A DNA stretch of 64,000 nucleotides from Maricaulaceae bacterium. GTDB lineage: Bacteria > Pseudomonadota > Alphaproteobacteria > Caulobacterales > Maricaulaceae. Below the pieces are notes generated by a model that was not told the origin of the DNA, made no database searches, and was given only the letters and a program-made list of their open reading frames with translations. Positions 1 to 49,193 of the stretch are shown here, piece by piece. How positions within the stretch are numbered: the stretch's first letter is position 1; every line of letters starts with the position of its first letter. The position numbers and the translations under genes are program-made. The stretch covers positions 56,391 through 120,390 of the forward strand of contig JAHCJP010000008.1 of NCBI GenBank assembly GCA_026126205.1, given 5' to 3'.

Positions 1-1719
1 TATGAAGAACGCAAGCGTGTCGTCGATTTGCAGGAGGTCTCTTGGCATGAGCAGCAAGCAACCGAATGCTATCATGGCGGACGCAACGAGCAGTTCTGGT
101 TTGGTCCCGCTTTCGAAGACGATTGGATCGATTACGATCTATCAAGCGCCTATCCGACCGCAATGGGACTGATCCGCAAACCTGATTGGAAACGGGCGTT
201 CGTCACCACTCGCATTTCGAAGTTCCAACCCGATGTTCTCGGCGTCGCCAATGTTGAGTTCGAATTTCCCGAGCATGTCCGTTTTCCGACCTTGCCTGTG
301 CGAACCGACAATGGCCTGATCTTTCCCCGCAAGGGCGTCAGCGATTGCGCCTCTCCTGAAATCGTTTTGGCTCAAGCGCTGGGCGCCAAGCTCAAGATCA
401 GACACGGCGTTGTTGTTCCATACAGTTCGGATGAAGCCGTATTCGGTGATTTCATTGCCGACTGCATCCGTCAGCGTTCATCATTTCCGAAGGGTTCGCT
501 CGGAAACCTGTTCTGGAAAGAGCTGAGCAATGCCAGCTACGGCAAAACTGCTCAGGGATTGAGAGAAAAGCGCGTCTTCGACCTGAGGGATCGCACCACC
601 AAGCCCCTTCCTCCAAGCAAGATTACTAATCCCTACTTCGCCGCTTTCATCACCTCCTTCGTGAGAGCCGTCCTTGGCGAGATCATGAATGGGCTTCCGC
701 ATAGTTGCTGCGTATTTAGCTGTACGACCGACGGCTTCTTAACCAATGCCACTCAGCGAGAAATGGACCATGCGACGCAGGGGCGACTTGTCGCTCTCTA
801 TAGCCAAGGCCGTCAGAAGCTGACAGGCGATCCGACTGTCTTGGAGATCAAGCACAGGGTTCGCCAGCCTCTAGGTTGGAGAACCAGAGGTCAGGCGACC
901 CTTAAGCCAGGCACCGTTCCTGACGCAGGTAACGCCAATTTCGTTCTGGCAAAGGGCGGCATTCACCTGCCTGAGTACATCGAGGATACGGCTCTCGAAA
1001 ACAGCAAGATCGTTAACCTGTTTCTCAACCGATCGCCCGATGACAAGATTACATTTCGCCACAAAACAGGCGTGCGGGATATCGTCACTTTTGATGCCGA
1101 TCTTGTCGACAAAAGCCTGACGAGGCGATTGAGCATGGAGTTTGATTGGAAGCGCAAGCCGAATGCCGCTGTACAATGCGCCTCCCCTAACCATGTCGCT
1201 TTTTCCACGAAACCATGGGACACCGTCGATGAGTTCATCCTGATGCGCCAATATTGGGAGGACTTTGCGATCAAGTCCCCATTCTGCCTCAAGTCGATTG
1301 CCGACTATCGGCAGTTCGCCATCTACGTGATGACCCATTCCACTCTCGGCAAGGCGGATAGCAAATATCTACGCCGTGACGGGGGTGACTTGAAACGACT
1401 TCGTCAATCGCTCGGCGCTGCATGGCGGCATTCGAAAGCGGGCTTGACATGGCAACAGCACCAAATCTCGAATGGCAAGTTCGCTGAAATCCTTACGGAG
1501 GCAGGCATCCCCTGCAATCGGGCAGATATTGAAAATGCTTCACGCAAGCCGTTTGCACCGAAGAAGTCCCCACCGACGCCTGACGTATATGAAGCCTTGA
1601 CAAAACTGGCTCTTCAGTTTCCCACCCTTGAGGTCGATGCCTTCATTGCTAATAATAACGGTGCGATTGACCTTGTTTCCACAATCAACTCGCCCTGCCC
1701 CTTCACCTCAAGGCTATGA
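1..1719 (+). CDS. Family-B DNA polymerase, C-terminal part (5' end cut by the window edge); primer-independent PolB (piPolB)-like
   Basis: Frame 1 is open from position 1, with no stop before the TTG at 28. PolB palm motifs occur in the correct order: DYDLSSAYPTAM (motif A, Dx2SLYPS type), KELSNASYGKTAQG (motif B, Kx3NSxYG type), FSCTTDGF (motif C, DTDS type). WRTRGQ then sits where classical PolBs carry KxY, resembling the KTRG signature described for pipolin piPolBs. Confidence 0.7.
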   Translation, partial: YEERKRVVDLQEVSWHEQQATECYHGGRNEQFWFGPAFEDDWIDYDLSSAYPTAMGLIRKPDWKRAFVTTRISKFQPDVLGVANVEFEFPEHVRFPTLPVRTDNGLIFPRKGVSDCASPEIVLAQALGAKLKIRHGVVVPYSSDEAVFGDFIADCIRQRSSFPKGSLGNLFWKELSNASYGKTAQGLREKRVFDLRDRTTKPLPPSKITNPYFAAFITSFVRAVLGEIMNGLPHSCCVFSCTTDGFLTNATQREMDHATQGRLVALYSQGRQKLTGDPTVLEIKHRVRQPLGWRTRGQATLKPGTVPDAGNANFVLAKGGIHLPEYIEDTALENSKIVNLFLNRSPDDKITFRHKTGVRDIVTFDADLVDKSLTRRLSMEFDWKRKPNAAVQCASPNHVAFSTKPWDTVDEFILMRQYWEDFAIKSPFCLKSIADYRQFAIYVMTHSTLGKADSKYLRRDGGDLKRLRQSLGAAWRHSKAGLTWQQHQISNGKFAEILTEAGIPCNRADIENASRKPFAPKKSPPTPDVYEALTKLALQFPTLEVDAFIANNNGAIDLVSTINSPCPFTSRL

Positions 1720-1958
1720 AGCCCTGAACATCTCCCTTTGATAAATCGGACTTATAGACCCTCAATTTACCGAAAATGGAGTTACGGCCAATAGTTTATC
1801 TGGCAATATGACGCTGTGGTCATCCTTGCGAAATTGGCTGCCTGTAGAGCGGTGGCGCCAGTTATTCACCCTCACCCATTTTAAAATAGCATTTTTATTT
1901 ATTGCATTGTTGCGTTTTTCTTACAAATTTGCTCATAATATGCGATTAGATTTATTAA

Positions 1959-1989
1959 TTACCGCTATGAATATCCTTACCGCTGTGAA
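1959..1989. repeat. Two tandem 13-bp direct repeats (TTACCGCTATGAA / TTACCGCTGTGAA), 18-bp register, iteron-like
   Basis: Read directly: 1959-1971 and 1977-1989 match at 12 of 13 positions. They lie in the AT-rich tract between the PolB gene and the Rep-like gene. Confidence 0.5.
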
Positions 1990-2096
1990 AGTTAATATAA
2001 AATAGCTGTAAAAACAACAAATACATGCGGCTCAAGTTTTCTGATTTCATAAATATATGGTCTTCATCATATCTTTATGGGGTTCTATTGCTCACA

Positions 2097-2594
2097 ATGC
2101 ACCGCTCTCTTGCTCGTTCAATCCAGCGATCCGTTCGCCAGTGGTTCAATATCGATGACTGGCATCATCCCTTTGCGGCGACTCTGACGCTGAAACAGCG
2201 GATCGGGGGAGATGGCGGCGTGTCATCCGCTGACGAGGGCCTGACACCAGAGAGCGCCTCTCGAAACCTGCGTCATTGGCTCAATGTGATGAACAAGCAG
2301 GTCTACGGCTCCGCCGCTCAGAGGCATGGGAAGAGCCTGTCTGTTATTCCCGTGTTGGAGGGCGACCGAGACAAGCGCCTGCATTACCACCTTGCCATTG
2401 ATTGCCCAAGGGACGACCTGATCGAGGCCTTCCCCGCAATGATCGTCACTTCATGGCGGAAGACGCTGTGGGGATACGGTCAAACCGACGTGAAGCCCTG
2501 TGACAGGGGTTGGCTCACGTATATCACGAAGCTGAGGGACAAACCCGACTTCGGATCATCCATAGACTGGTTGAACTGCCACACCCCCCACTGA
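2097..2594 (+). CDS. Small HUH-superfamily Rep-like protein (rolling-circle initiator/relaxase-like), tentative
   Basis: Motifs appear in canonical HUH order: FAATLTLK (motif 1, FxTLT-like), LHYHLAID (HUH) and LTYITKLRDK (YxxK catalytic Tyr). The track ORF begins at 2025 and the ATG at 2097 is an alternative. Neither has a clear SD, so the start is uncertain. Confidence 0.45.
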   Translation: MHRSLARSIQRSVRQWFNIDDWHHPFAATLTLKQRIGGDGGVSSADEGLTPESASRNLRHWLNVMNKQVYGSAAQRHGKSLSVIPVLEGDRDKRLHYHLAIDCPRDDLIEAFPAMIVTSWRKTLWGYGQTDVKPCDRGWLTYITKLRDKPDFGSSIDWLNCHTPH

Positions 2595-2605
2595 TCGGGG
2601 GGTGT
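2581..2605 (+). other. Perfect 9-bp stem-loop (ACACCCCCC-actgatc-GGGGGGTGT) spanning the stop codon of the Rep-like gene
   Basis: The two arms are exact reverse complements and the 7-nt loop contains the TGA stop (2592-2594). No T-tract follows. It may be a terminator-like hairpin or a candidate Rep nick-site hairpin. Confidence 0.45.
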
Positions 2606-2780
2606 CGTTGATCGTTGGGTATAGACCCCTTTCACGTCACCAATCGTTTGCTGCCCCACCAGGAACCGCTCTCCAAGGCGGGTCTTGATGGATATTTATA
2701 CCCAATAGAACCAGTTAGTTAGACACTATGATAAATCAAAATGCCCCATAACACCTAAAGCGTACAGGAGAATAGCAATT

Positions 2781-3107
2781 ATGAACAATAGAACACTGAC
2801 GAATTTCAATGTTCCATCACGAACGCGCAAAAGGTTCGATGAGGTCTGCCATGCCAGTGGCAGAACGAGAACATCGGTCCTTGTTGAACTGATGGAGAAT
2901 TTCATACTGCAACAGGGACAGGTTCTCGCTGAGCGGGCAAAGCGGTTTAAGGAGGTTGACCATTCGATCCGAGAAAATCGTCGTATAATCGGCTTCAAGG
3001 ATTTTCTCACCGAACAGCCCGTCGATGAACGAACGGCCGTTCAGGGGCGTTCAAATTCGAATCTAGCCCTGCCTGATCCGATGTTTTCCGATGGGCGGAA
3101 GGAATGA
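2781..3107 (+). CDS. Ribbon-helix-helix (CopG/Arc/MetJ-type) DNA-binding protein
   Basis: The N-terminus NFNVPSRTRKRFDEVCHASGRTRTSVLVELMENFI fits the beta-strand, helix, helix pattern of RHH repressors. AGGAG lies 8-9 nt upstream of the ATG. Confidence 0.7.
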   Translation: MNNRTLTNFNVPSRTRKRFDEVCHASGRTRTSVLVELMENFILQQGQVLAERAKRFKEVDHSIRENRRIIGFKDFLTEQPVDERTAVQGRSNSNLALPDPMFSDGRKE

Positions 3108-3420
3108 TGGTGATCTCGAAATCCAGAAGCCGCGGGCGAAACAGGATTCGATCAGGATTGTACAATATGCTCCCGCTCAATCAGTTGGAATTTACGAGGG
3201 AACGGCATTGAACCTGTTACCGAACGCGAATGCTCTTTCTAGGCAAGGAAATGGCTTGATCATGATCCAATGATTTTCCCGCCCTACGAAACATTTTGCG
3301 CCCCCCATGTTCGCTCTTAAGAATTAGCTCTGCACGGAAAAACGCACGAGGGCGCTTGCCCTGCATAAATGCGAGTGCCCTTATTGCGTTCCGCCCGCCA
3401 GAAGAGGTCAGCAACCCCTC

Positions 3421-4050
3421 ATGAATCTGATCAGGTCGAAAAAGCGCGTTGCGGACCATGGGGAGGTGTTCACGCCGCCTTGGCTGGTCGAGAAAATGCT
3501 CGACCTCGTTCAGGGTGAGACAGAACGCATTGATGCGCGTTTTCTCGAACCAGCATGCGGTAGCGGAAACTTTCTCGTCCCTATCTTTCAGCGCAAACTT
3601 GCAGCGGTTGAGCTGAAGTGCGGGAAATCCGAGTTCGACAAGCGGCACTATGCGCTGCTTGGGCTGATGTGCTGCTATGGCATCGAGCTTCTGGCAGACA
3701 ACATCGACGAATGCCGCGCGAACATGCTCGAGGTGTTTGCTGCCTACCTGGATATTGATGAAACCGACGACCTCTACCGCGCCGCATCCTTCGTGCTATC
3801 ACTCAATCTCGTTCATGGTGACGCGATGACGATGAAGGATATGACGGGACAACCGATCAACGTGGTTGAATGGGGTTATCTCGGCAAAGGCAAGTTTCAG
3901 CGCCGCGATTTCCGTCTTGATGTGCTGACAGGCATGTCCAGTTTCGCAGCGGAAGACTCCCTCTTCGCGCATCTGGGCAAGCACGAGATATTCACGCCAA
4001 CATCGACCTATCCGCCTATGACCGTGCGTGATCTGGCTGGCATGGCATGA
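3421..4050 (+). CDS. Methyltransferase-like protein with the SAM-binding half only (motifs X, I and II/III present, no catalytic NPPY)
   Basis: GEVFTPPWLV (motif X) and FLEPACGSGNFL (motif I, xPxCGxGxF) are present. YGIELLADNI and LVHGDAM resemble motifs II and III. The ORF ends 209 aa in, with no (N/D/S)PP(Y/F/W) anywhere. Confidence 0.65.
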   Translation: MNLIRSKKRVADHGEVFTPPWLVEKMLDLVQGETERIDARFLEPACGSGNFLVPIFQRKLAAVELKCGKSEFDKRHYALLGLMCCYGIELLADNIDECRANMLEVFAAYLDIDETDDLYRAASFVLSLNLVHGDAMTMKDMTGQPINVVEWGYLGKGKFQRRDFRLDVLTGMSSFAAEDSLFAHLGKHEIFTPTSTYPPMTVRDLAGMA

Positions 4051-4060
4051 CAGAGGCACG

Positions 4061-5641
4061 ATGAGCTTTCAGGCGAACTTCACCCTTCGTGGCAGAAATC
4101 CCGATGTGTTGACCTGCATCGCCAACCTGTCGAATGATGAAGTTTTCACGCCACCTGAGTTCGCCAACCGCATGCTCGACACGCTCGCTGAAGCGTGGGC
4201 AGAGCGTCATGATGGTGCAGATATCTGGTCAGACAGCTCGGTTCGGTTTCTCGATCCGTTCACCAAGTCTGGTGTTTTTCTACGCGAAATCGCCACTCGC
4301 CTGATCAATGGGTTGGAAGCTGATATCCCTGACCTGCAAGAGCGTGTCGATCACATTCTGACCAAGCAGATTTATGGGATTGCGATCACGCGCCTGACCA
4401 GCTTGCTTGCCCGCCGCAGCCTCTACTGCTCGAAGTTTGCCAATGGACCGCATTCCGTTTCGACGAAGTTCGAGAATGAGAGCGGCAATATTTGGTTTGA
4501 GCGGACTGAGCACACATGGATCGGACAAAAATGCAATTTCTGTGGAGCGCCTCGCTCGCTTTTTGACCGCGATGTAGAGCTGGAAAACCACGCTTACGCC
4601 TTCATTCACACCAATGATATCAAGCACCGTCTTTCGGGGCTGTTCGGAGATGACATGCAGTTTGATGTGATTATCGGAAATCCGCCCTACCAGATGACAG
4701 GCGGAGCAGGCGGTTCGAGCGATTCTTCGATCTATCATCTGTTTGCCCAGCAGGCCTTTAAGCTCGAACCACGCTTTGTAAGCATGGTGATACCCTCTCG
4801 TTGGATGGCTGGCGGTCGCGGTCTTGATGAGTTTCGTGGGGAAATGTTGAACAGTGGTCACATACGGAATCTGGTCGATTTCCCAGACTCAAGCACAGCG
4901 TTTCCTGGAGTGCAGATCAAGGGGGGGGTCTGCTTTTTTCTGTGGGACAGTCAGCATTCAGGCACGTGTGAGGTTACACGCGTTGCGAATGGTAAGGAAC
5001 ATGTACAGCGCGCTCGGGTTTTGGGTGAGTTTGATGTTTTCATTCGGGATGAGCGCGGCTTAAGCATTCTTCGAAAAGTTCTTTCAAAGAAAGAGGCATC
5101 GATTGTTGACCTTATTTCGGGTGATACGCCCTTCGGCATTGCCACAAACTTCAAAGATTGGAACGAAAAGGATGGCGACGACAAGATTCCACTTCATCTA
5201 ATTGCCCAAAACAAGCGATCTATCGGTTTCATGAAAAGGAGTTTGATCACAAAAAATGTTGGATATCTCGACACATGGAAAGTTTTTGTTCCGAAAGCAT
5301 ATGGCGCTGGTGAATCTTTCCCCCATCAGATACTTGGACGAGAGATAGTCGCCGCGCCTCCGTCGGCATGCACTCAGACTTATCTTGTCGTCTCACCGTT
5401 CTCTTCTGAGAAAGCTGCTCGCAGTTTTGCAAGCTATTATCAAACTCGCCTTTTTCGATTCCTTGTTTCTCTCCGTAAGATCACCCAAGATGCATTGCGC
5501 TCAACTTACACTTGGGTCCCAAAACAAGCGTGGGATCAAACTTGGAGCGATAGAATTTTGTATGAAAAATACGGGATCACTCCAGAAGAGGTTTCTTACA
5601 TTGAAAGCATGATACGTCCGATGGATAGCGCAGATGGCTAA
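4061..5641 (+). CDS. N6-adenine DNA methyltransferase, gamma class (Eco57I-family-like modification subunit)
   Basis: DEVFTPPEFANRML (motif X), FLDPFTKSGVFL (motif I variant) and FDVIIGNPPYQM (motif IV) are present, followed by a long C-terminal putative target-recognition region. The start is taken at ATG 4061, 10 nt after the upstream stop. The track start at 4028 would overlap the upstream gene by 23 nt. Confidence 0.85.
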   Translation: MSFQANFTLRGRNPDVLTCIANLSNDEVFTPPEFANRMLDTLAEAWAERHDGADIWSDSSVRFLDPFTKSGVFLREIATRLINGLEADIPDLQERVDHILTKQIYGIAITRLTSLLARRSLYCSKFANGPHSVSTKFENESGNIWFERTEHTWIGQKCNFCGAPRSLFDRDVELENHAYAFIHTNDIKHRLSGLFGDDMQFDVIIGNPPYQMTGGAGGSSDSSIYHLFAQQAFKLEPRFVSMVIPSRWMAGGRGLDEFRGEMLNSGHIRNLVDFPDSSTAFPGVQIKGGVCFFLWDSQHSGTCEVTRVANGKEHVQRARVLGEFDVFIRDERGLSILRKVLSKKEASIVDLISGDTPFGIATNFKDWNEKDGDDKIPLHLIAQNKRSIGFMKRSLITKNVGYLDTWKVFVPKAYGAGESFPHQILGREIVAAPPSACTQTYLVVSPFSSEKAARSFASYYQTRLFRFLVSLRKITQDALRSTYTWVPKQAWDQTWSDRILYEKYGITPEEVSYIESMIRPMDSADG

Positions 5642-8165
5642 ACCCATCTCCGAAATCCTTGCGCCCAAGCCCGATGTGCACCCGCGCATCTATGCCTATG
5701 CGATCAAAAGCAGTTCGCATGATGGCTTGCTGAAAATCGGGCAGACCACACGCGATGTGAAGCAGCGCATTCTGGAGCAGGTGAAGACTGCGGCTATCGA
5801 GTTCAAGATCGAGCTGGATGAGCCTGCTGCGCGTGATGATGGCTCGATCATCTCAGATCACGCTGTCAGGGCCGCGCTCATAAAAAAGGGTTTCGAAAAT
5901 CCTCAGCTCGAATGGATGCGCTGCTCTGTTGCTGACGTTCAAACCGTCCTGAACGAGCTTCGGACGGGCCAGAAGCTTTCTGCCAACCGCAACGAGACGT
6001 TTCCGCCGCGACAAGAGCAAACCGAAGCCGTCGATAAAACATACGACTATTTCACGTCGATCTGGCGTGAAGATGAAACGAAGGCGCCGCGCTTTCTCTG
6101 GAATGCGAAAATGCGTTTCGGAAAAACATTCGCCACATATCAGCTTGCCAAAAAACTTGGCGCCAAGCGCGTCCTTGTCGTCACGTTCAAGCCTGCCGTT
6201 GAAGACGCTTGGCAGACAGACCTTGAATCGCATGTGGATTTCGAAGGCTGGCAATATCTGTCGCGCAAGTCTGAGAATGACCCCACCCAGATCGATGCCA
6301 ACAAGCCCGTTGTTTTCTTTGGATCGTTTCAAGACCTGCTCGGTCGTGACAAGGTGACGGGAGCGATCAAACCGCGCAACGAATGGCTGCACACGATCAA
6401 CTGGGATCTAGTCGTTTTCGACGAGTATCACTTTGGCGCATGGCGCGACACGGTGAAGGAACTGTTCGAGGGCGAAGACGATGCAAAGCGCGAAGAGAGG
6501 TTCGAATATGACGCTGGGCTGGACGAGGTAAACGACGACCTCAGCGACATTTCCGCGAACGAAGCGATCTTCCTGCCCATCACGACCCGCGCATATCTCT
6601 ATCTGTCTGGGACACCGTTCAGGGCACTGGCGACAGGCGAGTTCATCGAAGAGCAAATCTTTAACTGGACCTACACCGACGAGCAGCGCGCAAAAGCCGA
6701 TTTCGCCACCAAGCATCCCGACAAGCGCAATCCCTATGCCTCTTTGCCGCAGATGCGATTGCTCACCTATCAGATGCCTGACGAACTATTGGCAATCGCC
6801 AGTGCTGGTGAGTTCGACGAGTTCGATCTGAACGAGTTTTTCGCCGCCAAAGGGGCAGGCAAGAATGCTGCCTTCACGCACAAAAGCGACGTTCTGAAAT
6901 GGCTTGAAATCATTCGTGGCGCATATGTGCCGCAGACTGTGGATGCGCTGAAGACTGGGACGCGGCCGCCATTCCCGTATTCAGACGCAAGATTGCTGCC
7001 CTATCTCCAGCATTCGCTCTGGTTCCTGCCGAATGTCGCGGCCTGTCACGCAATGGCAAACTTGCTCGCTGAAAGGCACAACACGTTCTGGCATGGCTAC
7101 ACGGTCATTCTCGCTGCTGGATCGCAAGCAGGTATCGGCCTCGATGCGGTTCCACCTGTTCGTCACGCTATAGGTAGCGGCTTCGATACCAAAACAATCA
7201 CGCTGTCATGTGGGAAGCTGACAACTGGCGTGACGATCCCGCAGTGGTCATCGATCTTGATGCTGCGCAATCTGAAATCGCCTGAGACCTATTTCCAAGC
7301 TGCTTTCCGTGTGCAGTCTCCGTGGTCGATCAAGAATCCGCACGGTGACAATCCCAACGAAGATGAGATTATCAAGCCTGTGTGCTTCGTGTTCGACTTC
7401 GCCCCGACACGAGCATTGAGACAGCTTTCCGACTACGGCATTGGCTTGTCCCCTGGCGAAGCTAATCCCGAAAACGCTGTGAAAGAGCTTGTCTCGTTTC
7501 TGCCCGTGCTCGCTTACGATGGCGCGAACATGACGCAGATCGATGCTGGCGGCATCCTCGATATTGCGATGGCAGGCACGTCAGGCACGTTGCTGGCGCG
7601 CAAATGGGAATCCGCATTGCTCGTCAACGTCGATAACGACACCTTGCGCCGCGTGCTCGATAATCCAGAAGCGATGGCGGCTGTCGAACGGATCGAAGGC
7701 TGGCGCTCTCTTGGTGACAACATCATCGAGACGATCATCAACAAGAACGAAAAGGTCAAGGAACTAAAGAGTAAAGAGAAGAGCGAGGGGCTGTTAAAAA
7801 CCGAGAAGAAAGAGCTTAGCGAAGAGGAAAAGGAATATAAGTCAAAGCGCAAGCTTGTTCAGGAAAAACTGATCAAGTTCGCTACCCGCATTCCTGCTTT
7901 CATGTATCTCACCGATTTCCGAGAAAACACGCTTCAAGATGTGATCACTAAGCTTGAGCCTGACCTGTTTCAAGCTGTCACTGGCTTGACCGTCAGCGAT
8001 TTTCACCTGCTCGTCCGCTTGAAGGTATTCAACACAGAGCGGATGAACCAAGCTGTCTTCGCTTTCCGCCGCTATGAAGATGCGTCACTGCGCTACACGG
8101 GCATTGAGAGCCATGAAGGACTCACGCATTACGGTCTCTATGACACTGTGACAGCGAAGGAATGA
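5634..8165 (+). CDS. T5orf172 (GIY-YIG-like) domain fused to an SF2 helicase/translocase; putative restriction (Res-like) subunit
   Basis: N-terminus: RIYAYAIKSSSHDGLLKIGQTTRDVKQR...LEWMRC, the T5orf172/MUG113 pattern. Helicase motifs: MRFGKTFAT (I), LVVFDEYHF (II, DExH), YLSGTPF (III) and YFQAAFRVQSP (VI). A Lys/Glu-rich coiled-coil and a C-terminal domain follow. The start overlaps the methylase stop by 8 nt (ATGGCTAA). Confidence 0.85.
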   Translation: MAKPISEILAPKPDVHPRIYAYAIKSSSHDGLLKIGQTTRDVKQRILEQVKTAAIEFKIELDEPAARDDGSIISDHAVRAALIKKGFENPQLEWMRCSVADVQTVLNELRTGQKLSANRNETFPPRQEQTEAVDKTYDYFTSIWREDETKAPRFLWNAKMRFGKTFATYQLAKKLGAKRVLVVTFKPAVEDAWQTDLESHVDFEGWQYLSRKSENDPTQIDANKPVVFFGSFQDLLGRDKVTGAIKPRNEWLHTINWDLVVFDEYHFGAWRDTVKELFEGEDDAKREERFEYDAGLDEVNDDLSDISANEAIFLPITTRAYLYLSGTPFRALATGEFIEEQIFNWTYTDEQRAKADFATKHPDKRNPYASLPQMRLLTYQMPDELLAIASAGEFDEFDLNEFFAAKGAGKNAAFTHKSDVLKWLEIIRGAYVPQTVDALKTGTRPPFPYSDARLLPYLQHSLWFLPNVAACHAMANLLAERHNTFWHGYTVILAAGSQAGIGLDAVPPVRHAIGSGFDTKTITLSCGKLTTGVTIPQWSSILMLRNLKSPETYFQAAFRVQSPWSIKNPHGDNPNEDEIIKPVCFVFDFAPTRALRQLSDYGIGLSPGEANPENAVKELVSFLPVLAYDGANMTQIDAGGILDIAMAGTSGTLLARKWESALLVNVDNDTLRRVLDNPEAMAAVERIEGWRSLGDNIIETIINKNEKVKELKSKEKSEGLLKTEKKELSEEEKEYKSKRKLVQEKLIKFATRIPAFMYLTDFRENTLQDVITKLEPDLFQAVTGLTVSDFHLLVRLKVFNTERMNQAVFAFRRYEDASLRYTGIESHEGLTHYGLYDTVTAKE

Positions 8166-8261: not shown

Positions 8262-8297
8262 CCCGTCAAACATAAACGTTGGTTTACTTTTGACGGG
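8262..8297. promoter_or_regulatory. Inverted repeat CCCGTCAAA-N18-TTTGACGGG immediately upstream of the serine recombinase gene (candidate recombinase-binding or operator site)
   Basis: The 9-bp arms at 8262-8270 and 8289-8297 are perfect reverse complements. The repeat ends 10 nt before the ATG at 8308. Confidence 0.35.
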
Positions 8298-8307
8298 ATA
8301 CGGGGCG

Positions 8308-8940
8308 ATGGCTCGTTATGTCGCATATTTCAGGGTGTCGACGGAGAAGCAGGGAAAGTCGGGCCTCGGTCTGGCCGCCCAGCGTTCGTTGATCGAACGG
8401 TTCGTGTCCGATGGTGACGAGGTCGTTGCTGAATACGTCGAGGTGCAATCGGGCAAAAATGACGAGCGGATTGAGCTTTGGAAGGCGATCCACCACGCAA
8501 AGCGGACCGATGCAAAGCTGCTGATTGCGAAACTGGATCGATTTTCACGAAAGGTCAGCTTCATCGCCTCGATCATGGAGCAGGGAATCGGGTTGGTCGT
8601 GGCCGAGATGCCAAACGCAACGGATTTCCAACTGCACATCTTCGCCGCCCTCGCACAGGAAGAGCGTCGGTTGATTTCCGAACGGACCCGCAATGCCCTG
8701 ACCGAAGCGAAGAAGCGGGGCGTGGTTCTGGGGAAGAATGGCAAGGTTCTGGCGGAGCGAAACCGCAAGGCCGCTGATGAACGCGCGGAAGCGCTGCGCC
8801 CCACCGTTATTCCGATGGTTGAACAGGGGCTGTCGATCAGTGGGATCGCCCGCCGCCTGAACATGGAAGGGATCAGGACAGCACGGGGGAGCAGGTTCTA
8901 CCCGCAACAGGTCTCCGACATGATCCGTCGTATGGGATAG
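8308..8940 (+). CDS. Serine recombinase (resolvase/invertase family)
   Basis: MARYVAYFRVSTEKQ carries the catalytic Ser motif. The resolvase core reads LLIAKLDRFSR and the C-terminal HTH reads GLSISGIARRLNMEGIRT. The internal ATG at 8308 was chosen over the track start at 8290. Confidence 0.9.
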   Translation: MARYVAYFRVSTEKQGKSGLGLAAQRSLIERFVSDGDEVVAEYVEVQSGKNDERIELWKAIHHAKRTDAKLLIAKLDRFSRKVSFIASIMEQGIGLVVAEMPNATDFQLHIFAALAQEERRLISERTRNALTEAKKRGVVLGKNGKVLAERNRKAADERAEALRPTVIPMVEQGLSISGIARRLNMEGIRTARGSRFYPQQVSDMIRRMG

Positions 8941-8967: not shown

Positions 8968-8990
8968 GGTTCACCCGTGCGCTGATGCTG

Positions 8991-9362
8991 TCATTTTGCG
9001 GCTTTGACGAATTTCTGACGGATATCCGCCGCCGCCTTGGTCAGTTGATCGTCGAAATCGCCTTTCAGGACCATTCCCCTGACCGTACACAGCGCCGCCT
9101 CAACGATGTCGAGGTCAGCGCACTGGATCGAGAACATCCCCTTCTTGAGTTCAATCGGTTGGCGCCCGTATTTGATTGGGAGGAAGTACGTTCCCGCTTC
9201 ATCCATCCAGACCCAGGCAGCGCGAGGCTGTGCGCCCTCGATCATCTGGCGGACATAACTGATTTGCTGGTCGATACTGCGGACCAGTTTATGGCGGCGC
9301 TGGACGTTGGCGGACGCCTTGTCGGGGCGGGTGGTGGAGGCGAACTTGAGTTCCATCGACAT
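8991..9362 (-). CDS. Hypothetical protein encoded directly downstream of the integrase
   Basis: The ORF track gives 8991-9530, but that N-terminal extension overlaps the integrase 3' end. MSMELKF at 9362 starts 58 nt after the integrase stop. I recognise no motif in it. Confidence 0.55.
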   Translation of the reverse strand: MSMELKFASTTRPDKASANVQRRHKLVRSIDQQISYVRQMIEGAQPRAAWVWMDEAGTYFLPIKYGRQPIELKKGMFSIQCADLDIVEAALCTVRGMVLKGDFDDQLTKAAADIRQKFVKAAK

Positions 9363-9420
9363 ATCTCCGTGGTTGATATGTCGGGCGTCCCGCCATTCGA
9401 ATTTAAGGTCCACGGGGTTA

Positions 9421-10647
9421 TTACTGACCACCGAACTGCTGGAGGTTGATCGCCATCTCACGGCTGAGAGGGAGATTGCGGGCGTAAAACCGCTCGATCT
9501 GCTCAACCGAGGTTCCAGCGTTCTTCGCAAGATTGTAGATGTTCACCTGCCCGTGTGACAGGATCAAGCGCATGCAGATCGCTGTGTGGCGGAGGGAATA
9601 GATCGTATACTTGAGTCCTGCCTCTGGGTCATTCTTGACACCAGCCCTTTTCAAGACTTCCCGAAACTGGCGCTGCACGATCTTCGAGACTGTCTCACGA
9701 TTGGGATAGTCGGGAAAGAACAGGTAATTGCTAGGCTTGGCGTTGGGGTTGCGGCCTTTGATCCGCTGATAGACACCGACCGCTGCGGGCATCGTGTTGG
9801 CGACCCTGAATCCTGTCTTGCCGTTGCGAATGGTCAGCAGCAACCGCTTGGGATCTTCCGCAACGGCCACTTCATCATGCTTGAGGGCGTAAATTTCTGA
9901 GATGATCGGGCGAACGAACGAATGCGTGACGAACAAAATAAGATCATACAGTTCATCGGTCACGGGAACGCCGCGGACGAGCACATTTTCTCTCGCCATG
10001 GCCTTGGCGGCTCGAAGGACCGCTTGATAGGCGTCGTCCTCTTCCGCCACCAACGGGTGAAACGGGAGATAGGAACGAGGCGTGTCCTTCTGGCGGGTTC
10101 TCGGTGTCGCAGGGACGATATCGATTACGCCATCATCCCGAGCCACCTTCAGCACGTTGCGGAAAGTGGCTGTCAGCATATTGCGGGTTGAGGTCGAAAG
10201 ATCAGGGCGCTGCTTGGACAGTTTGTCCATGAACTCCTGATAGTCTCGGGTTTTCAGATCCCGAATATCCTTATGTCCGAATGCTTTGATCAAACCCCAT
10301 TCAGCGTTGTTCAGAAACAGCTGGGTGTTGCGGGCATAGTTGGCGTTGCGCTCACCGTTTTCGACAAGCCGCTGCCCTTTGCTGATCAACCTCGTTGCGT
10401 AATGGCGGAAGCTGAATTCGCGCTCAACACGCTTCTCAGCCCCGAGCAGTTCAAATGCCAACTCCCTTGCCACCTGCTTGGCTTTGACCCGTGATGTTTC
10501 TTGGGTTGAGCATACAATATACCGCCTGATACGAGGATCGCGGATGCGGGCTTGCCAATAGGGGCTAGCTCTGACTTTATAAATCGCCAATCCGCGATGT
10601 ATCGTGATGATCTTGCCATCGAGGGCGTTTTTGGATTTAGTTGGCAT
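9421..10647 (-). CDS. int: Tyrosine recombinase / phage-type integrase
   Basis: The C-terminal catalytic region has YSLRHTAICMRL (HxxR box) and SVEQIERFYARNL (catalytic Tyr). The N-terminal arm/core-binding region is about 150 aa. The gene is adjacent to the tRNA-derived att sequence. Confidence 0.9.
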   Translation of the reverse strand: MPTKSKNALDGKIITIHRGLAIYKVRASPYWQARIRDPRIRRYIVCSTQETSRVKAKQVARELAFELLGAEKRVEREFSFRHYATRLISKGQRLVENGERNANYARNTQLFLNNAEWGLIKAFGHKDIRDLKTRDYQEFMDKLSKQRPDLSTSTRNMLTATFRNVLKVARDDGVIDIVPATPRTRQKDTPRSYLPFHPLVAEEDDAYQAVLRAAKAMARENVLVRGVPVTDELYDLILFVTHSFVRPIISEIYALKHDEVAVAEDPKRLLLTIRNGKTGFRVANTMPAAVGVYQRIKGRNPNAKPSNYLFFPDYPNRETVSKIVQRQFREVLKRAGVKNDPEAGLKYTIYSLRHTAICMRLILSHGQVNIYNLAKNAGTSVEQIERFYARNLPLSREMAINLQQFGGQ

Positions 10648-10745
10648 GAGTTCCGCTTAGCCCAAAACAGGTTTTCGGTCAAAAGTTATAAAGTGAAGCT
10701 ATAAAGATATCGATAACCTATTGAAATACAAGGTGACTCTAGCCC

Positions 10746-10790
10746 CTCTTAATCAGCGGGTCCTAGGTTCGAATCCTAGTGGGCGCACCA
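10746..10790 (+). tRNA. 3' half of a tRNA gene (anticodon loop to CCA); probable att site, not an intact tRNA
   Basis: The T-arm is CTAGG-TTCGAAT-CCTAG. The 3' acceptor strand TGGGCGC is followed by discriminator A and an encoded CCA (10788-10790). The loop-like CTCTTAA followed by TCAGC and GGGTC would fit a Lys(CUU)-type anticodon arm. There is no complementary 5' anticodon-stem strand, no D-arm and no 5' acceptor strand (GCGCCCA) upstream. Confidence 0.6.
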
Positions 10791-10815
10791 AGTTTCCCCC
10801 GCCGGAGCGCGAAGC

Positions 10816-11343
10816 ATGAATCTCGACCGGATCAGCGCCGGAGAAAACCCGCCGGATGACGTCAACATGATCGTCGAGGTCCCGCTCGGCGGCGACCCGG
10901 TGAAATACGAGCTGGACAAGGCCTCCGGCGTGCTGGTGGTCGACCGCTTCCTGCACACCGCCATGCGCTATCCGTGCAATTACGGCTTCATCCCCCACAC
11001 GCTGTCCGAAGACGGCGACCCGGCGGACGTGCTGTGCCTCGGCACCTCCGCCCTGATCCCCGGCAGCCTGGTGCGGGTGCGCCCGATCGGCGTGCTGCTG
11101 ATGAAGGACGAAAAGGGGCCGGACGAGAAAATCCTCGCCGCGCCGCACGCCTCGGTGACGTCATATTACGACGCGGTGAAGGACCATACCGACGTGCCCC
11201 CCGCCCTGCTGGCGCGGATCACGCACTTCTTCGAGCACTACAAGGACCTGGAGCCCGGCAAATGGGTGAAGGTCAGCGGCTGGGGCGACGCGGCGCTGGC
11301 GCGGACGATGATCGAAAAGGCCATCGCCGCGGCGAAGGGTTGA
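10816..11343 (+). CDS. ppa: Inorganic pyrophosphatase
   Basis: The sequence [19 protein letters not shown]...[33 protein letters not shown] and the 175-aa length match family I soluble PPases. Confidence 0.95.
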
Positions 11344-11386
11344 ACGCGGCCAGCGCTGTAAACCGTCCCTCAGCTTCTTGGCCGAC

Positions 11387-11507
11387 CCCCTCGTCCTTCG
11401 TGGCTCGCCGCCTCTGGCGGCTCGCACCTCAGGATGAGGGGAAGAGCAACAACACCCTCACCCTGAGGAGTCCCGGCCGTCAGGCCGGGCCACGAAGGGC
11501 GAGGGTG
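11387..11507. repeat. Pair of inverted REP-like palindromic units (CCCTCGTCCTTCGTGG...CACCTCAGGATGAGGG type)
   Basis: Unit 1 is 11387-11441 and unit 2 is 11454-11507. The arms of unit 2 are near-exact reverse complements of the arms of unit 1. Each unit encloses its own GC hairpin (GCCGCC-tct-GGCGGC and CCCGGCC-gtca-GGCCGGG). Confidence 0.5.
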
Positions 11508-11522
11508 GCCGATGTTGCACTG

Positions 11523-11550
11523 CCCCCGATCACGCGCGCGTGACCGGGGG
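11523..11550. other. 28-nt near-perfect palindrome (CCCCCGATCACGCGCGCGTGACCGGGGG)
   Basis: One mismatch across 14-nt arms, with a perfect core TCACGCGCGCGTGA at 11530-11543. It lies between ppa and the Vgb-like gene. It is either a terminator-like hairpin or an operator. Confidence 0.4.
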
Positions 11551-11634
11551 CGCTTTGGCGGCGCGGGCCGCGTCCTGTAGGCTGTGCGGATCCGGGCGCC
11601 CCCGCGCCCGCCGAGCAATCGACAGGAGAGACGC

Positions 11635-12645
11635 ATGACGCGCGCCCTTACCGCCGCCTTCGCCGCCCTGCCGCTGGCGCTGACCGGCGCCGCCGCGATG
11701 GCGGACGAGCCGCAGACCATCACCATCGAGGAATGGGACATCCCGTGGGAGAACACCCGCCCGCGCGACCCCTACACCATCGACGCCGAAACGATCTGGT
11801 TCGTCGGCCAGCAGGGGCATTATCTGGCCCATCTCAACGCCGCCACCGGCGAGCTGACCCGCTATGAGCTGCAGCCCGGCGACGGCCCGCACAACCTGAT
11901 CGTCGATGCGGACGGCATTGTCTGGTACGCCGGCAACCGCGCCGCCCATATCGGCCGTTTCGACCCGCAGACGCAGGAATTCGAGCGCATCGCCACGCCG
12001 CAGGACACGGCGCGCGACCCCCACACCCTGGTCTTCGACGCCAACGGCGACATCTGGTTCACCGCGCAGGGCGCCAACTCCATCGGCCGCCTAACGCTGG
12101 AAGGCCGCGGGCTGGACATCATCCCGGTTCCGACCGAGCGTTCCCGCCCCTATGGCATCGACATCGCCCCGGACGGAATGGTCTGGTCGGTGCTGTTCGG
12201 AACCAACAAGCTCGCCGCGGTCGATCCCGAAACGCTGGAGCTGACCGAATACGAAATCCCGCGCGCCGAGGCCCGCCCGCGCCGCCTCGCCATCACCAGC
12301 GACGGCCGCGTCTGGTATGTCGATTACGCCGCCGGCTATCTCGGCGCCTATGACCCGCGGAGCGGCGAATTCGCCGAATGGGCCGCGCCCTCCGGCGCGC
12401 AGTCCCGCCCCTACGCCATGGCCGTGGACGACGAGGACCGCCTCTGGTTCGCCGAAAGCGGCGTGTCGCCGAACCTGTTCGTCGGCTTTGACCCGGCGAC
12501 GGAAAGCTTCTTCTCGGTCACGCCGGTGCCTTCGGGCGGCGGCACGCTGCGCCATATGCAGTATTTCGCGCCGACGGGCGAAATCTGGTTCGGGGCCGAC
12601 ACCCACACCATCGGCCGCGCCATCGTTCAGCCCGGGCGGCGGTGA
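11635..12645 (+). CDS. Secreted beta-propeller protein, virginiamycin B lyase (Vgb)-like repeats
   Basis: The signal peptide is MTRALTAAFAALPLALTGAAAMA. Six to seven repeats follow the pattern GPHNLIVDADGIVWYAG...IGRFDP / DPHTLVFDANGDIWFTA...IGRL. The start is taken at ATG 11635. Confidence 0.7.
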   Translation: MTRALTAAFAALPLALTGAAAMADEPQTITIEEWDIPWENTRPRDPYTIDAETIWFVGQQGHYLAHLNAATGELTRYELQPGDGPHNLIVDADGIVWYAGNRAAHIGRFDPQTQEFERIATPQDTARDPHTLVFDANGDIWFTAQGANSIGRLTLEGRGLDIIPVPTERSRPYGIDIAPDGMVWSVLFGTNKLAAVDPETLELTEYEIPRAEARPRRLAITSDGRVWYVDYAAGYLGAYDPRSGEFAEWAAPSGAQSRPYAMAVDDEDRLWFAESGVSPNLFVGFDPATESFFSVTPVPSGGGTLRHMQYFAPTGEIWFGADTHTIGRAIVQPGRR

Positions 12646-48700: not shown

Positions 48701-48761
48701 GGCCGGCGCCCGCTCCGCTCGGTCACCTTTCATTCAGCCGTGTGTGCGCTATATTAAGCGT

Positions 48762-49081
48762 GTCCGCCCTCGGGCGGACTATGACGATAAACGCGCGCGT
48801 AATAACCGGACTGGACCCGGGTGCGATGCCCGGCGGCTCCACCAACACCTTTCTCCCATTGGGGAGACTTATGGGGCCGAAACAGGATCGACAGACGGGT
48901 AAAGGTGTTTGCTTTCGTCCGAATGGGCTCCGTCAAAAGCCCGCTATCAAAGTTGCCAACGACAACTTTGCTGAAGAGGTCGCTCTCGCCGCGTAAGCGG
49001 TGCGAGATATCTCGCTCTAAAGTCCCGGGGCCTTAGCGACCCCGGGCGGGGTCCGGGGGGCGCCTGGCAACAGAAGCCCCC
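48762..49081 (+). ncRNA. ssrA: Circularly permuted (two-piece) tmRNA gene: acceptor piece about 48762-48844, spacer 48845-48872, coding piece about 48873-49081
   Basis: The tag reading frame GCC AAC GAC AAC TTT GCT GAA GAG GTC GCT CTC GCC GCG TAA (48955-48996) encodes ANDNFAEEVALAA. The tmRNA 5' end GGGGCCGAAACAGGATCGAC is at 48873. The T-arm CCGGG-TGCGATG-CCCGG and CGGCTCC-A-CCA (ending at 48844) lie upstream of that 5' end. The 5' GGGGCCG pairs with CGGCTCC, including the G3:U70 alanine identity pair. The outer ends of the two pieces are estimated from terminal hairpins, not determined. Confidence 0.85.
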
Positions 49082-49193
49082 CACTTCATCCTGCCCTGCC
49101 CTTCCCTTCCCTGACATTTTCCGACATTCGCGCCTGCACCCTCGTGCGCCGCGCGCAGCTCTGGCAAGTTTCGCCAAACGCCGGAGCGCGCCC

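Follow-up and report, generated by a model that had tools for sequence, protein, structure and literature searches.

The stretch analysed here, 64,000 nucleotides of contig JAHCJP010000008.1 from a Maricaulaceae bacterium (the window), opens inside a gene for a family-B DNA polymerase (PolB) that, judged by its sequence motifs, belongs to the primer-independent family (piPolB), and that lies on an island of foreign composition ending about 10.79 kb into the window. Frame 1 of the plus strand reads uninterrupted from base 1 to a stop codon at 1717–1719, and the remaining two frames and the antisense open reading frames (ORFs) over 1–1719 are short or broken. The ORF passes the left edge of the window, which encodes residues 319–890 of an 890-amino-acid (aa) polymerase (the 3' 1719 nucleotides, or 572 codons plus stop, of 890 codons). 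Protein P0001 (890 aa), flagged as the window's own product, is 100% identical and supplies the 318 N-terminal residues encoded upstream. These contain the motifs ExoI (IIGFDTEY, with D49/E51 of the full-length protein), ExoII (GHFTRAD, D144), and ExoIII (YALNDAV, Y246/D250). The gene is therefore intact, and its exonuclease half lies merely beyond the window, as a first-pass annotation made from the DNA letters had supposed; the N-terminal half is neither missing nor disrupted, the 890-aa ORF is unbroken, and the exonuclease residues are invariant among homologues.

The polymerase matches the Pfam family PF03175 (DNA_pol_B_2, "organellar and viral" family-B polymerases) above the gathering score (E 9e-11). 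No NCBIfam or PADLOC model matches it, and a PDB sequence search with the full-length protein returned nothing at E<=1. A word-indexed protein search found 1286 homologues, and an exhaustive HMMER search of 1.84 billion representatives found relatives at E<=1e-3 in 2362 representatives of 50% clusters. The database labels of these relatives are mainly "hypothetical protein" or "DNA polymerase".

The three polymerase motifs stand in the order first described for this stretch. Motif A (DLSSAYPT, 136–159, residues 364–371) carries the catalytic D364 and a steric-gate-type Y369, and is paired with DVNSLYPAQ of the phi29 DNA polymerase in a weak hhalign alignment. Motif B (KELSNASYG, 517–543, residues 491–499) aligns with phi29 KLMLNSLYG. 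Motif C reads SCTTDGF (718–738, residues 558–564), and is followed by an extended primer-terminus motif, KH-X8-RTRG (850–891; K602, H603, R612, T613, R614, and G615), in place of the classical KxY. The segment LGWRTRGQ, which had been singled out as a KTRG-type replacement of KxY, occupies nucleotides 871–894 (residues 609–616), and the full motif is KH-RVRQPLGW-RTRG, with a spacer of exactly eight residues. Both features are the published hallmarks of piPolBs, in which motif C is SxTTDG rather than YxDTDS and an extended KH-X8-KTRG takes the place of KxY (Redrejo-Rodriguez et al. 2017, PMC5695915). Motif C had been noted as unusual in having TDG for DTDS; the substitution is real, but SxTTDG is itself a piPolB hallmark, present in nearly all of 269 homologues examined, and not a further oddity. 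With both hallmarks present, the polymerase is by sequence a member of the piPolB family. The piPolB criterion of the program ExplorePipolin is a match to a curated hidden Markov model at E<1e-50 (PMC11551731).

Homology of RTRG to the KTRG position is borne out by two alignments. In BLASTP, the polymerase of Staphylococcus epidermidis plasmid pSE-12228-03 (E 2e-40) aligns LEVKH...VKTRGN with LEIKH...WRTRGQ of the query. In a nine-sequence MAFFT alignment that includes this enzyme and relatives from Aeromonas, Vibrio, Marinobacter, Solimonas, Methylobacterium, Bradyrhizobium, and Qipengyuania, KH-X8-RTRGQ is in column register with KH-X8-KTRGQ/N, and [K/R]TRGQ forms one column block. The spacing from K602 to R612 is 10 residues, the same as from K613 to K623 in the numbering of the Escherichia coli enzyme (PMC5695915). 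In that enzyme, mutants K613A, K623A, and R625A have shown that K613 is needed for priming and translesion synthesis, and that primer extension and synthesis past the dinucleotide depend on K623 and R625 (PMC5695915). Among 69 aligned full-length homologues, the most distant at 46% identity, D49, E51, D144, D250, D364, Y369, K491, N495, Y498, G499, T560, T561, D562, G563, K602, R614, and G615 are all invariant, and at least 90% of the sequences retain R612.

RTRG is found in 111 of the 120 closest homologues. Among the best 150 of the 2362 cluster representatives, 66 have RTRG and 44 have KTRG, with arginine dominant nearer the query and lysine dominant in more distant, largely gammaproteobacterial sequences. 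Ten KTRG-type cluster representatives that were looked up included Aeromonas, Solimonas, and Marinobacter and none from E. coli, and a homologue search from the Aeromonas protein gave 15 matches, none of them from E. coli. The motif is thus best written [K/R]TRG, with the two residues alternating family-wide on the sequences compared, and RTRG is not unusual. Compared with the 89%-identical gene of the related locus L031, the ratio of nonsynonymous to synonymous substitution rates (dN/dS) is 0.12 overall, 0.09 in the polymerase part, and 0.18 in the C-terminal tail. This is a rough estimate from one gene pair, the other member of which is on a metagenomic contig, and it points to purifying selection on both parts. 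Since arginine keeps the charge and RTRG is the natural state of a large clade under purifying selection, activity is expected to be retained.

An AlphaFold2 model of the full-length protein was built on the 69-sequence alignment (mean predicted local distance difference test, pLDDT, 88.8; predicted template modelling score 0.84). In the PDB, phi29 DNA polymerase entries make up all of its top matches (E ~1e-15, template modelling score 0.65–0.68 normalised to phi29), and archaeal and eukaryotic PolBs follow at ~1e-9 to 1e-10. The PDB copy searched, by sequence and by structure, holds no piPolB structure. In the predicted model, the two strands of one beta-hairpin (599–610 and 615–621) carry KH and RTRG, which fits the published placement of the KTRG motif on the palm strand that bears KxY (PMC5695915). 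An hhalign comparison of the family alignment with the phi29 sequence was weak (E 0.1) and covered motifs A and B, and did not place RTRG on KxY; the phi29 sequence used agrees with PDB 1XHX save for D12A and D66A in the deposited chain. Motif spacing is similar, with 127 aa between A and B against 134 in phi29 and 71 between B and C against 75, the regions in which phi29 houses TPR1 and TPR2. The model predicts a beta-hairpin (509–520) at the TPR2 location, and its Foldseek alignment spans ~720 columns against the 572-aa phi29 chain. TPR1 and TPR2, insertions that piPolBs share with protein-primed PolBs, thus have indirect support here.

A C-terminal tail of 275 aa (892–1716) follows the last polymerase motif. 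The first-pass annotation had described it as about 270 aa without recognisable similarity. The tail is conserved throughout the family. It measures 245–315 residues after [K/R]TRG in nearly all full-length representatives, HMMER alignments extend to query residue ~865–890 even at 33% identity, and a block reading RLSMEFDWKRK...PW...C(L/I)K is recognisable as far as the Staphylococcus enzyme. The tail is, on this conservation, an integral part of the family and not an appendage. The structure prediction that had been proposed for it gave a confident beta region and an all-alpha domain. Modelled alone, on 26 sequences, the tail reached a pLDDT of 83.8, with values above 90 across most of the helical part, and comprises four beta strands and helices, beta-rich to about residue 725, followed by an all-alpha domain of ~160 aa (about 727–890). 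The thumb is probably represented by part of this beta region. Foldseek found no match for the tail model in the PDB (best E 2.4) or BFVD (best E 0.33). The all-alpha domain could adapt a phi29-like polymerase to starts free of a terminal protein, or could dock a partner such as the Rep-like protein encoded next to it. In the metagenomic locus L034 (165–2842), the polymerase is present as two adjacent ORFs of 601 aa (with the PolB domain) and 288 aa, split near the junction of [K/R]TRG and the tail; a frameshift may explain this, or the C-terminal part may be naturally separate.

Downstream of the polymerase gene, the plus strand encodes a small protein of the HUH type, resembling rolling-circle Rep proteins (2025–2594, 165–189 aa, likely start at M25, nucleotide 2097), which matches PF23343 (REP_ORF2-G2P) at E 1.2e-7. 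Its motifs I (TLT), II (HYH), and III (YxxK) are invariant in 10 loci. The gene is directly downstream of piPolB in related loci L002, L003, L006, L015, L018, and L031, and a homologue lies near the split polymerase gene in L034. Strict linkage of this gene to piPolB was considered and rejected, given that homologues are also present in small integrase-bearing islands that lack a polymerase (L032, L033, where the island is next to guaA, and L036). The main text of the 2024 pipolin survey (PMC11551731) makes no mention of HUH or rolling-circle genes. The distance from piPolB to the conserved Rep-like part is ~380 nucleotides here (1720–2096), compared with ~70–100 in L015, L003, L018, L002, and L031, and the additional sequence contains just a weak 65-aa ORF and two short direct repeats at chance level. 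Scans of 1600–3500 for repeats, promoters, and terminators found nothing above chance and no candidate origin.

Three further conserved genes accompany the polymerase and Rep-like genes on the plus strand. A 108-aa protein (orf108, 2781–3107) has homologues of 45–76% identity after the Rep-like gene in eight loci. A small serine recombinase of the resolvase type (8290–8940; Pfam Resolvase, E 1e-24) has homologues of 52–84% identity in 14 related loci, and a 154-aa protein (orf154, 8985–9449) has homologues in eight. Neither orf108 nor orf154 has a family match in Pfam, PADLOC, or PHROG. These five genes form a core that recurs in related Sphingomonadales loci, in which the cargo and the integrase vary. 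The cargo here is a restriction-modification (RM) module on the plus strand (3421–8165; Pfam, and PADLOC models MTase_II and REase_MTase_IIG). It consists of a 209-aa N-terminal methyltransferase fragment (3421–4050), an Eco57I-type methyltransferase of 537 aa (4028–5641), and an 843-aa helicase-nuclease with T5orf172/GIY-YIG-like and ResIII domains (5634–8165). The 209-aa ORF, which overlaps the start of the 537-aa methyltransferase, matches the N-terminal part only of N6-adenine/MmeI-type methyltransferases and may represent either a remnant left by a frameshift or an additional, incomplete methyltransferase.

The right end of the island is marked by a tyrosine recombinase on the minus strand (9421–10647), which is 67% identical to the integrase in the corresponding place of L003 and matches Pfam Phage_integrase below the gathering score (E 4e-4). 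One hundred bases past this integrase lies a 44-nucleotide fragment on the plus strand that resembles the 3' part of a tRNA-Lys, from the anticodon loop to CCA (10747–10790), and that serves as the candidate right-hand attachment repeat. It aligns with the tRNA-Lys(UUU) of L001 and L015, with compensatory changes in the T stem; ARAGORN found no complete tRNA at 10747–10790, and Rfam did not recognise the fragment. The host gene ppa (inorganic pyrophosphatase) starts at 10816. The GC content is 51–56% over the first ~10.7 kb and 62–73% in the rest of the window. L003 has the same layout, with an integrase followed by an exact 40-nucleotide tRNA-Lys 3' fragment and no whole tRNA, and in L001 and L015 an intact tRNA-Lys is present 1.8–3.6 kb upstream of piPolB. 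The left end of the island is outside the window, presumably with an intact tRNA-Lys there. No close DNA match for the island was found in complete E. coli genomes.

The piPolB gene is thus accompanied by two recombinases, and the island combines foreign composition with a conserved core and exchangeable cargo, as seen in its GC content, its RM genes, and the related loci. The island is, on its gene content and layout, an integrative element of the pipolin type with its candidate right attachment repeat in the window. A permuted (two-piece) tmRNA gene on the plus strand (48752–49087; tag peptide ANDNFAEEVALAA) is remote from the island and does not serve as its integration site. Permuted tmRNAs are expected in an alphaproteobacterial host.

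Comparison of related loci points to exchange of modules among these elements. The T5orf172/ResIII protein is 91% identical to its counterpart in L015 (19155–21683, in inverted orientation), the pipolin of Sphingomonadaceae bacterium RE-M21a, while the polymerases of the two elements are just ~77–81% identical, suggesting a recent exchange of RM cargo between them. The closest homologue of the polymerase is P0002 (90% identity) and the second closest is P0003 of L031 (89%), a locus that carries different cargo, another integrase, and a tRNA-Gly(GCC) (11156–12629). The window (9421–10830) and L003 (20126–21511) share the 67%-identical tyrosine recombinase, the tRNA-Lys fragment, and a conserved arm sequence, TATAAAG...TAACCTATTGAAATA, so that integrase and target vary between close polymerase relatives (window and L003 compared with L031). 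Two of the piPolB loci, L003 and L015, are on one 1.70-Mb sphingomonad chromosome (OZ248511.1). The polymerase match in L003 covers query residues 134–890 only, and this protein may be truncated at the N-terminus. The shared core with variable cargo and integrase agrees with the literature, in which pipolins are described as bimodular platforms that exchange defence cargo and swap integrases (PMC11551731).

The predicted phi29-like fold, the complete exonuclease and polymerase motifs, SxTTDG, KH-X8-[K/R]TRG, the signature of selection, and the island context together indicate that positions 1–1719 are very probably the 3' part of an intact gene of the piPolB type, on a pipolin integrated into a tRNA-Lys gene, at its 3' end, in an alphaproteobacterium of high GC content. 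By analogy with the E. coli enzyme (PMC5695915), the integrase would excise the element, and the resulting circle would be copied by the polymerase. The enzyme would bind an initiating deoxynucleoside triphosphate on a single-stranded template and form the first dinucleotide without a primer, with the basic strand K602...R612-T-R614-G holding the short nascent 5' end. Elongation would then be processive, strand-displacing, and proofreading, with bypass of small lesions, and re-priming after damage would also be possible. More speculatively, the neighbouring HUH Rep-like protein may provide a nick-based start for one strand. The two proteins could even form a primase-free replicon, in which Rep nicks the excised circle and so starts the leading strand, and piPolB elongates it by strand displacement and then primes the displaced strand de novo, an arrangement that we regard as unlikely.

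Several points weigh against the assignment as a pipolin-borne piPolB with the activities of the E. coli enzyme. Only the right end of the island lies in the window, so that the boundaries of the pipolin are half shown. The one piPolB characterised so far, that of E. coli, carries KTRG and is impaired by the K623A mutation, such that arginine at the first position may alter function. The comparison with that enzyme was made by published residue numbers. A separate Rep-like initiator is encoded beside the gene, and the de novo priming of the polymerase may not be needed for replication of the element. Even for the E. coli enzyme, the role of piPolB in replication or damage tolerance is not settled.

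The last two points bear on the alternative that survives best, namely that the protein is a genuine piPolB whose main role is damage tolerance, by re-priming past lesions, or defence, with replication left to the Rep-like protein or the host machinery. Expression of the E. coli piPolB raises survival of mitomycin C and UV treatment, and pipolins have been described as defence islands (PMC11551731). The conserved Rep-like neighbour belongs to a family that is also found on the polymerase-free islands L032, L033, and L036, and therefore can work without piPolB. However, piPolB is the only replication gene common to all pipolins (PMC5695915, PMC11551731), and PADLOC, as noted, has no model that matches the polymerase. 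This alternative, which we consider possible but rather unlikely, concerns the biological role rather than the molecular mechanism and is compatible with a piPolB on a pipolin.

It is far less probable that the island is degenerating and that its polymerase is in decay or catalytically impaired. The missing first aspartate of motif C, the arginine in place of lysine, the methyltransferase fragment, and the relatives that are truncated (L003, matched from residue 134) or split (the 601-aa and 288-aa pieces of L034) could be read as signs of decay. However, TTDG is shared with the E. coli enzyme, whose polymerase activity is proven, with proofreading and processivity (PMC5695915), the ORF here is full length with its catalytic residues unchanged among the 69 homologues, dN/dS is 0.09–0.18, and most members of a large clade carry RTRG. 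Least probable of all is a protein-primed PolB of the phi29, Bam35, casposon, or linear-plasmid type, dependent on a terminal protein: the best structural matches are to phi29 DNA polymerase, and the sole Pfam match is to a family that also holds protein-primed enzymes, but SxTTDG and KH-X8-[K/R]TRG stand in place of YxDTDS and KxY, the 10.8 kb of the element within the window contain no terminal-protein-like gene or terminal inverted repeat, and an element integrated by a tyrosine recombinase at a tRNA gene would be circular once excised and need no end-priming.

Among family-B polymerases, only the piPolBs are known to initiate DNA chains without a primer, and primer-free whole-genome amplification makes use of them. 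The family was recognised in 2017, and the gene described here is chiefly another instance of it, in an island of a familiar kind; of the present findings, only the conserved gene for the Rep-like partner and the C-terminal domain without a known fold reach slightly past the literature consulted. The gene is a well-preserved and intact representative of the large arginine-type ([R]TRG) alphaproteobacterial branch, which is reported to be closest to the mitochondrial plasmid enzymes. This makes it a reasonable candidate for asking how lysine or arginine affects priming, what the C-terminal domain does, and whether the polymerase cooperates with the Rep-like protein.

The phi29 DNA polymerase (2PYJ, 2EX3, and 1XHX) is the best structural match to the predicted model, and its motif A and B sequences can be aligned with those found here. 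It differs in having YCDTDS and KTY (KxY), compared with SCTTDG and RTRG here, and in needing a terminal protein. At 575 aa it is also shorter, and the ~160 extra C-terminal residues of the present enzyme, the all-alpha domain, are without a PDB counterpart. The polymerase of S. epidermidis pSE-12228-03 (WP_164924958.1), an enzyme of the plasmid-pipolin type, to which Staphylococcus plasmids are assigned (PMC11551731), is 27% identical over 620 residues with the motifs in register, and shares the C-terminal block RLSM(D/E)FD.KR...C(I/L)K. It is longer (1109 aa, with an extended N-terminus), has KTRG, and belongs to a Firmicute clade and an extrachromosomal plasmid.

The E. coli piPolB (KDU42669, from the pipolin of strain 3-373-03_S1_C2; Redrejo-Rodriguez et al. 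2017, PMC5695915) has the same ExoI–III, motifs A and B, SxTTDG, and KH-X8-xTRG. The corresponding residues have similar numbers and, here and in E. coli, are D49/E51 and D59/E61, D364 and D368, K602/H603 and K613/H614, and R612/R614 and K623/R625. Its pipolin likewise has integrases, a tRNA target, and RM cargo. Unlike that enzyme, the polymerase described here has arginine for lysine in KTRG and falls in the alphaproteobacterial rather than the enterobacterial clade, the former being a branch already present in the 2017 paper through a Rhodobacterales representative. The tRNA target is Lys-like here and Leu in the E. coli pipolin, and the core contains an HUH Rep-like protein and a small serine recombinase, compared with the IntSXT/IntP2/DUF2787/WYL core reported for Enterobacteria. 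Close parallels are also present among the alphaproteobacterial pipolins of the survey by Mateo-Caceres and Redrejo-Rodriguez (2024, PMC11551731), which found putative pipolins in 11,431 assemblies. The present element has no large serine recombinase or yifB target in the window; it shares with those catalogued a small resolvase-like serine recombinase near piPolB and exchanged defence (RM) cargo, and its tyrosine recombinase beside a tRNA-Lys fragment resembles their optional tyrosine recombinase variant, which integrates at a tRNA gene with direct repeats.

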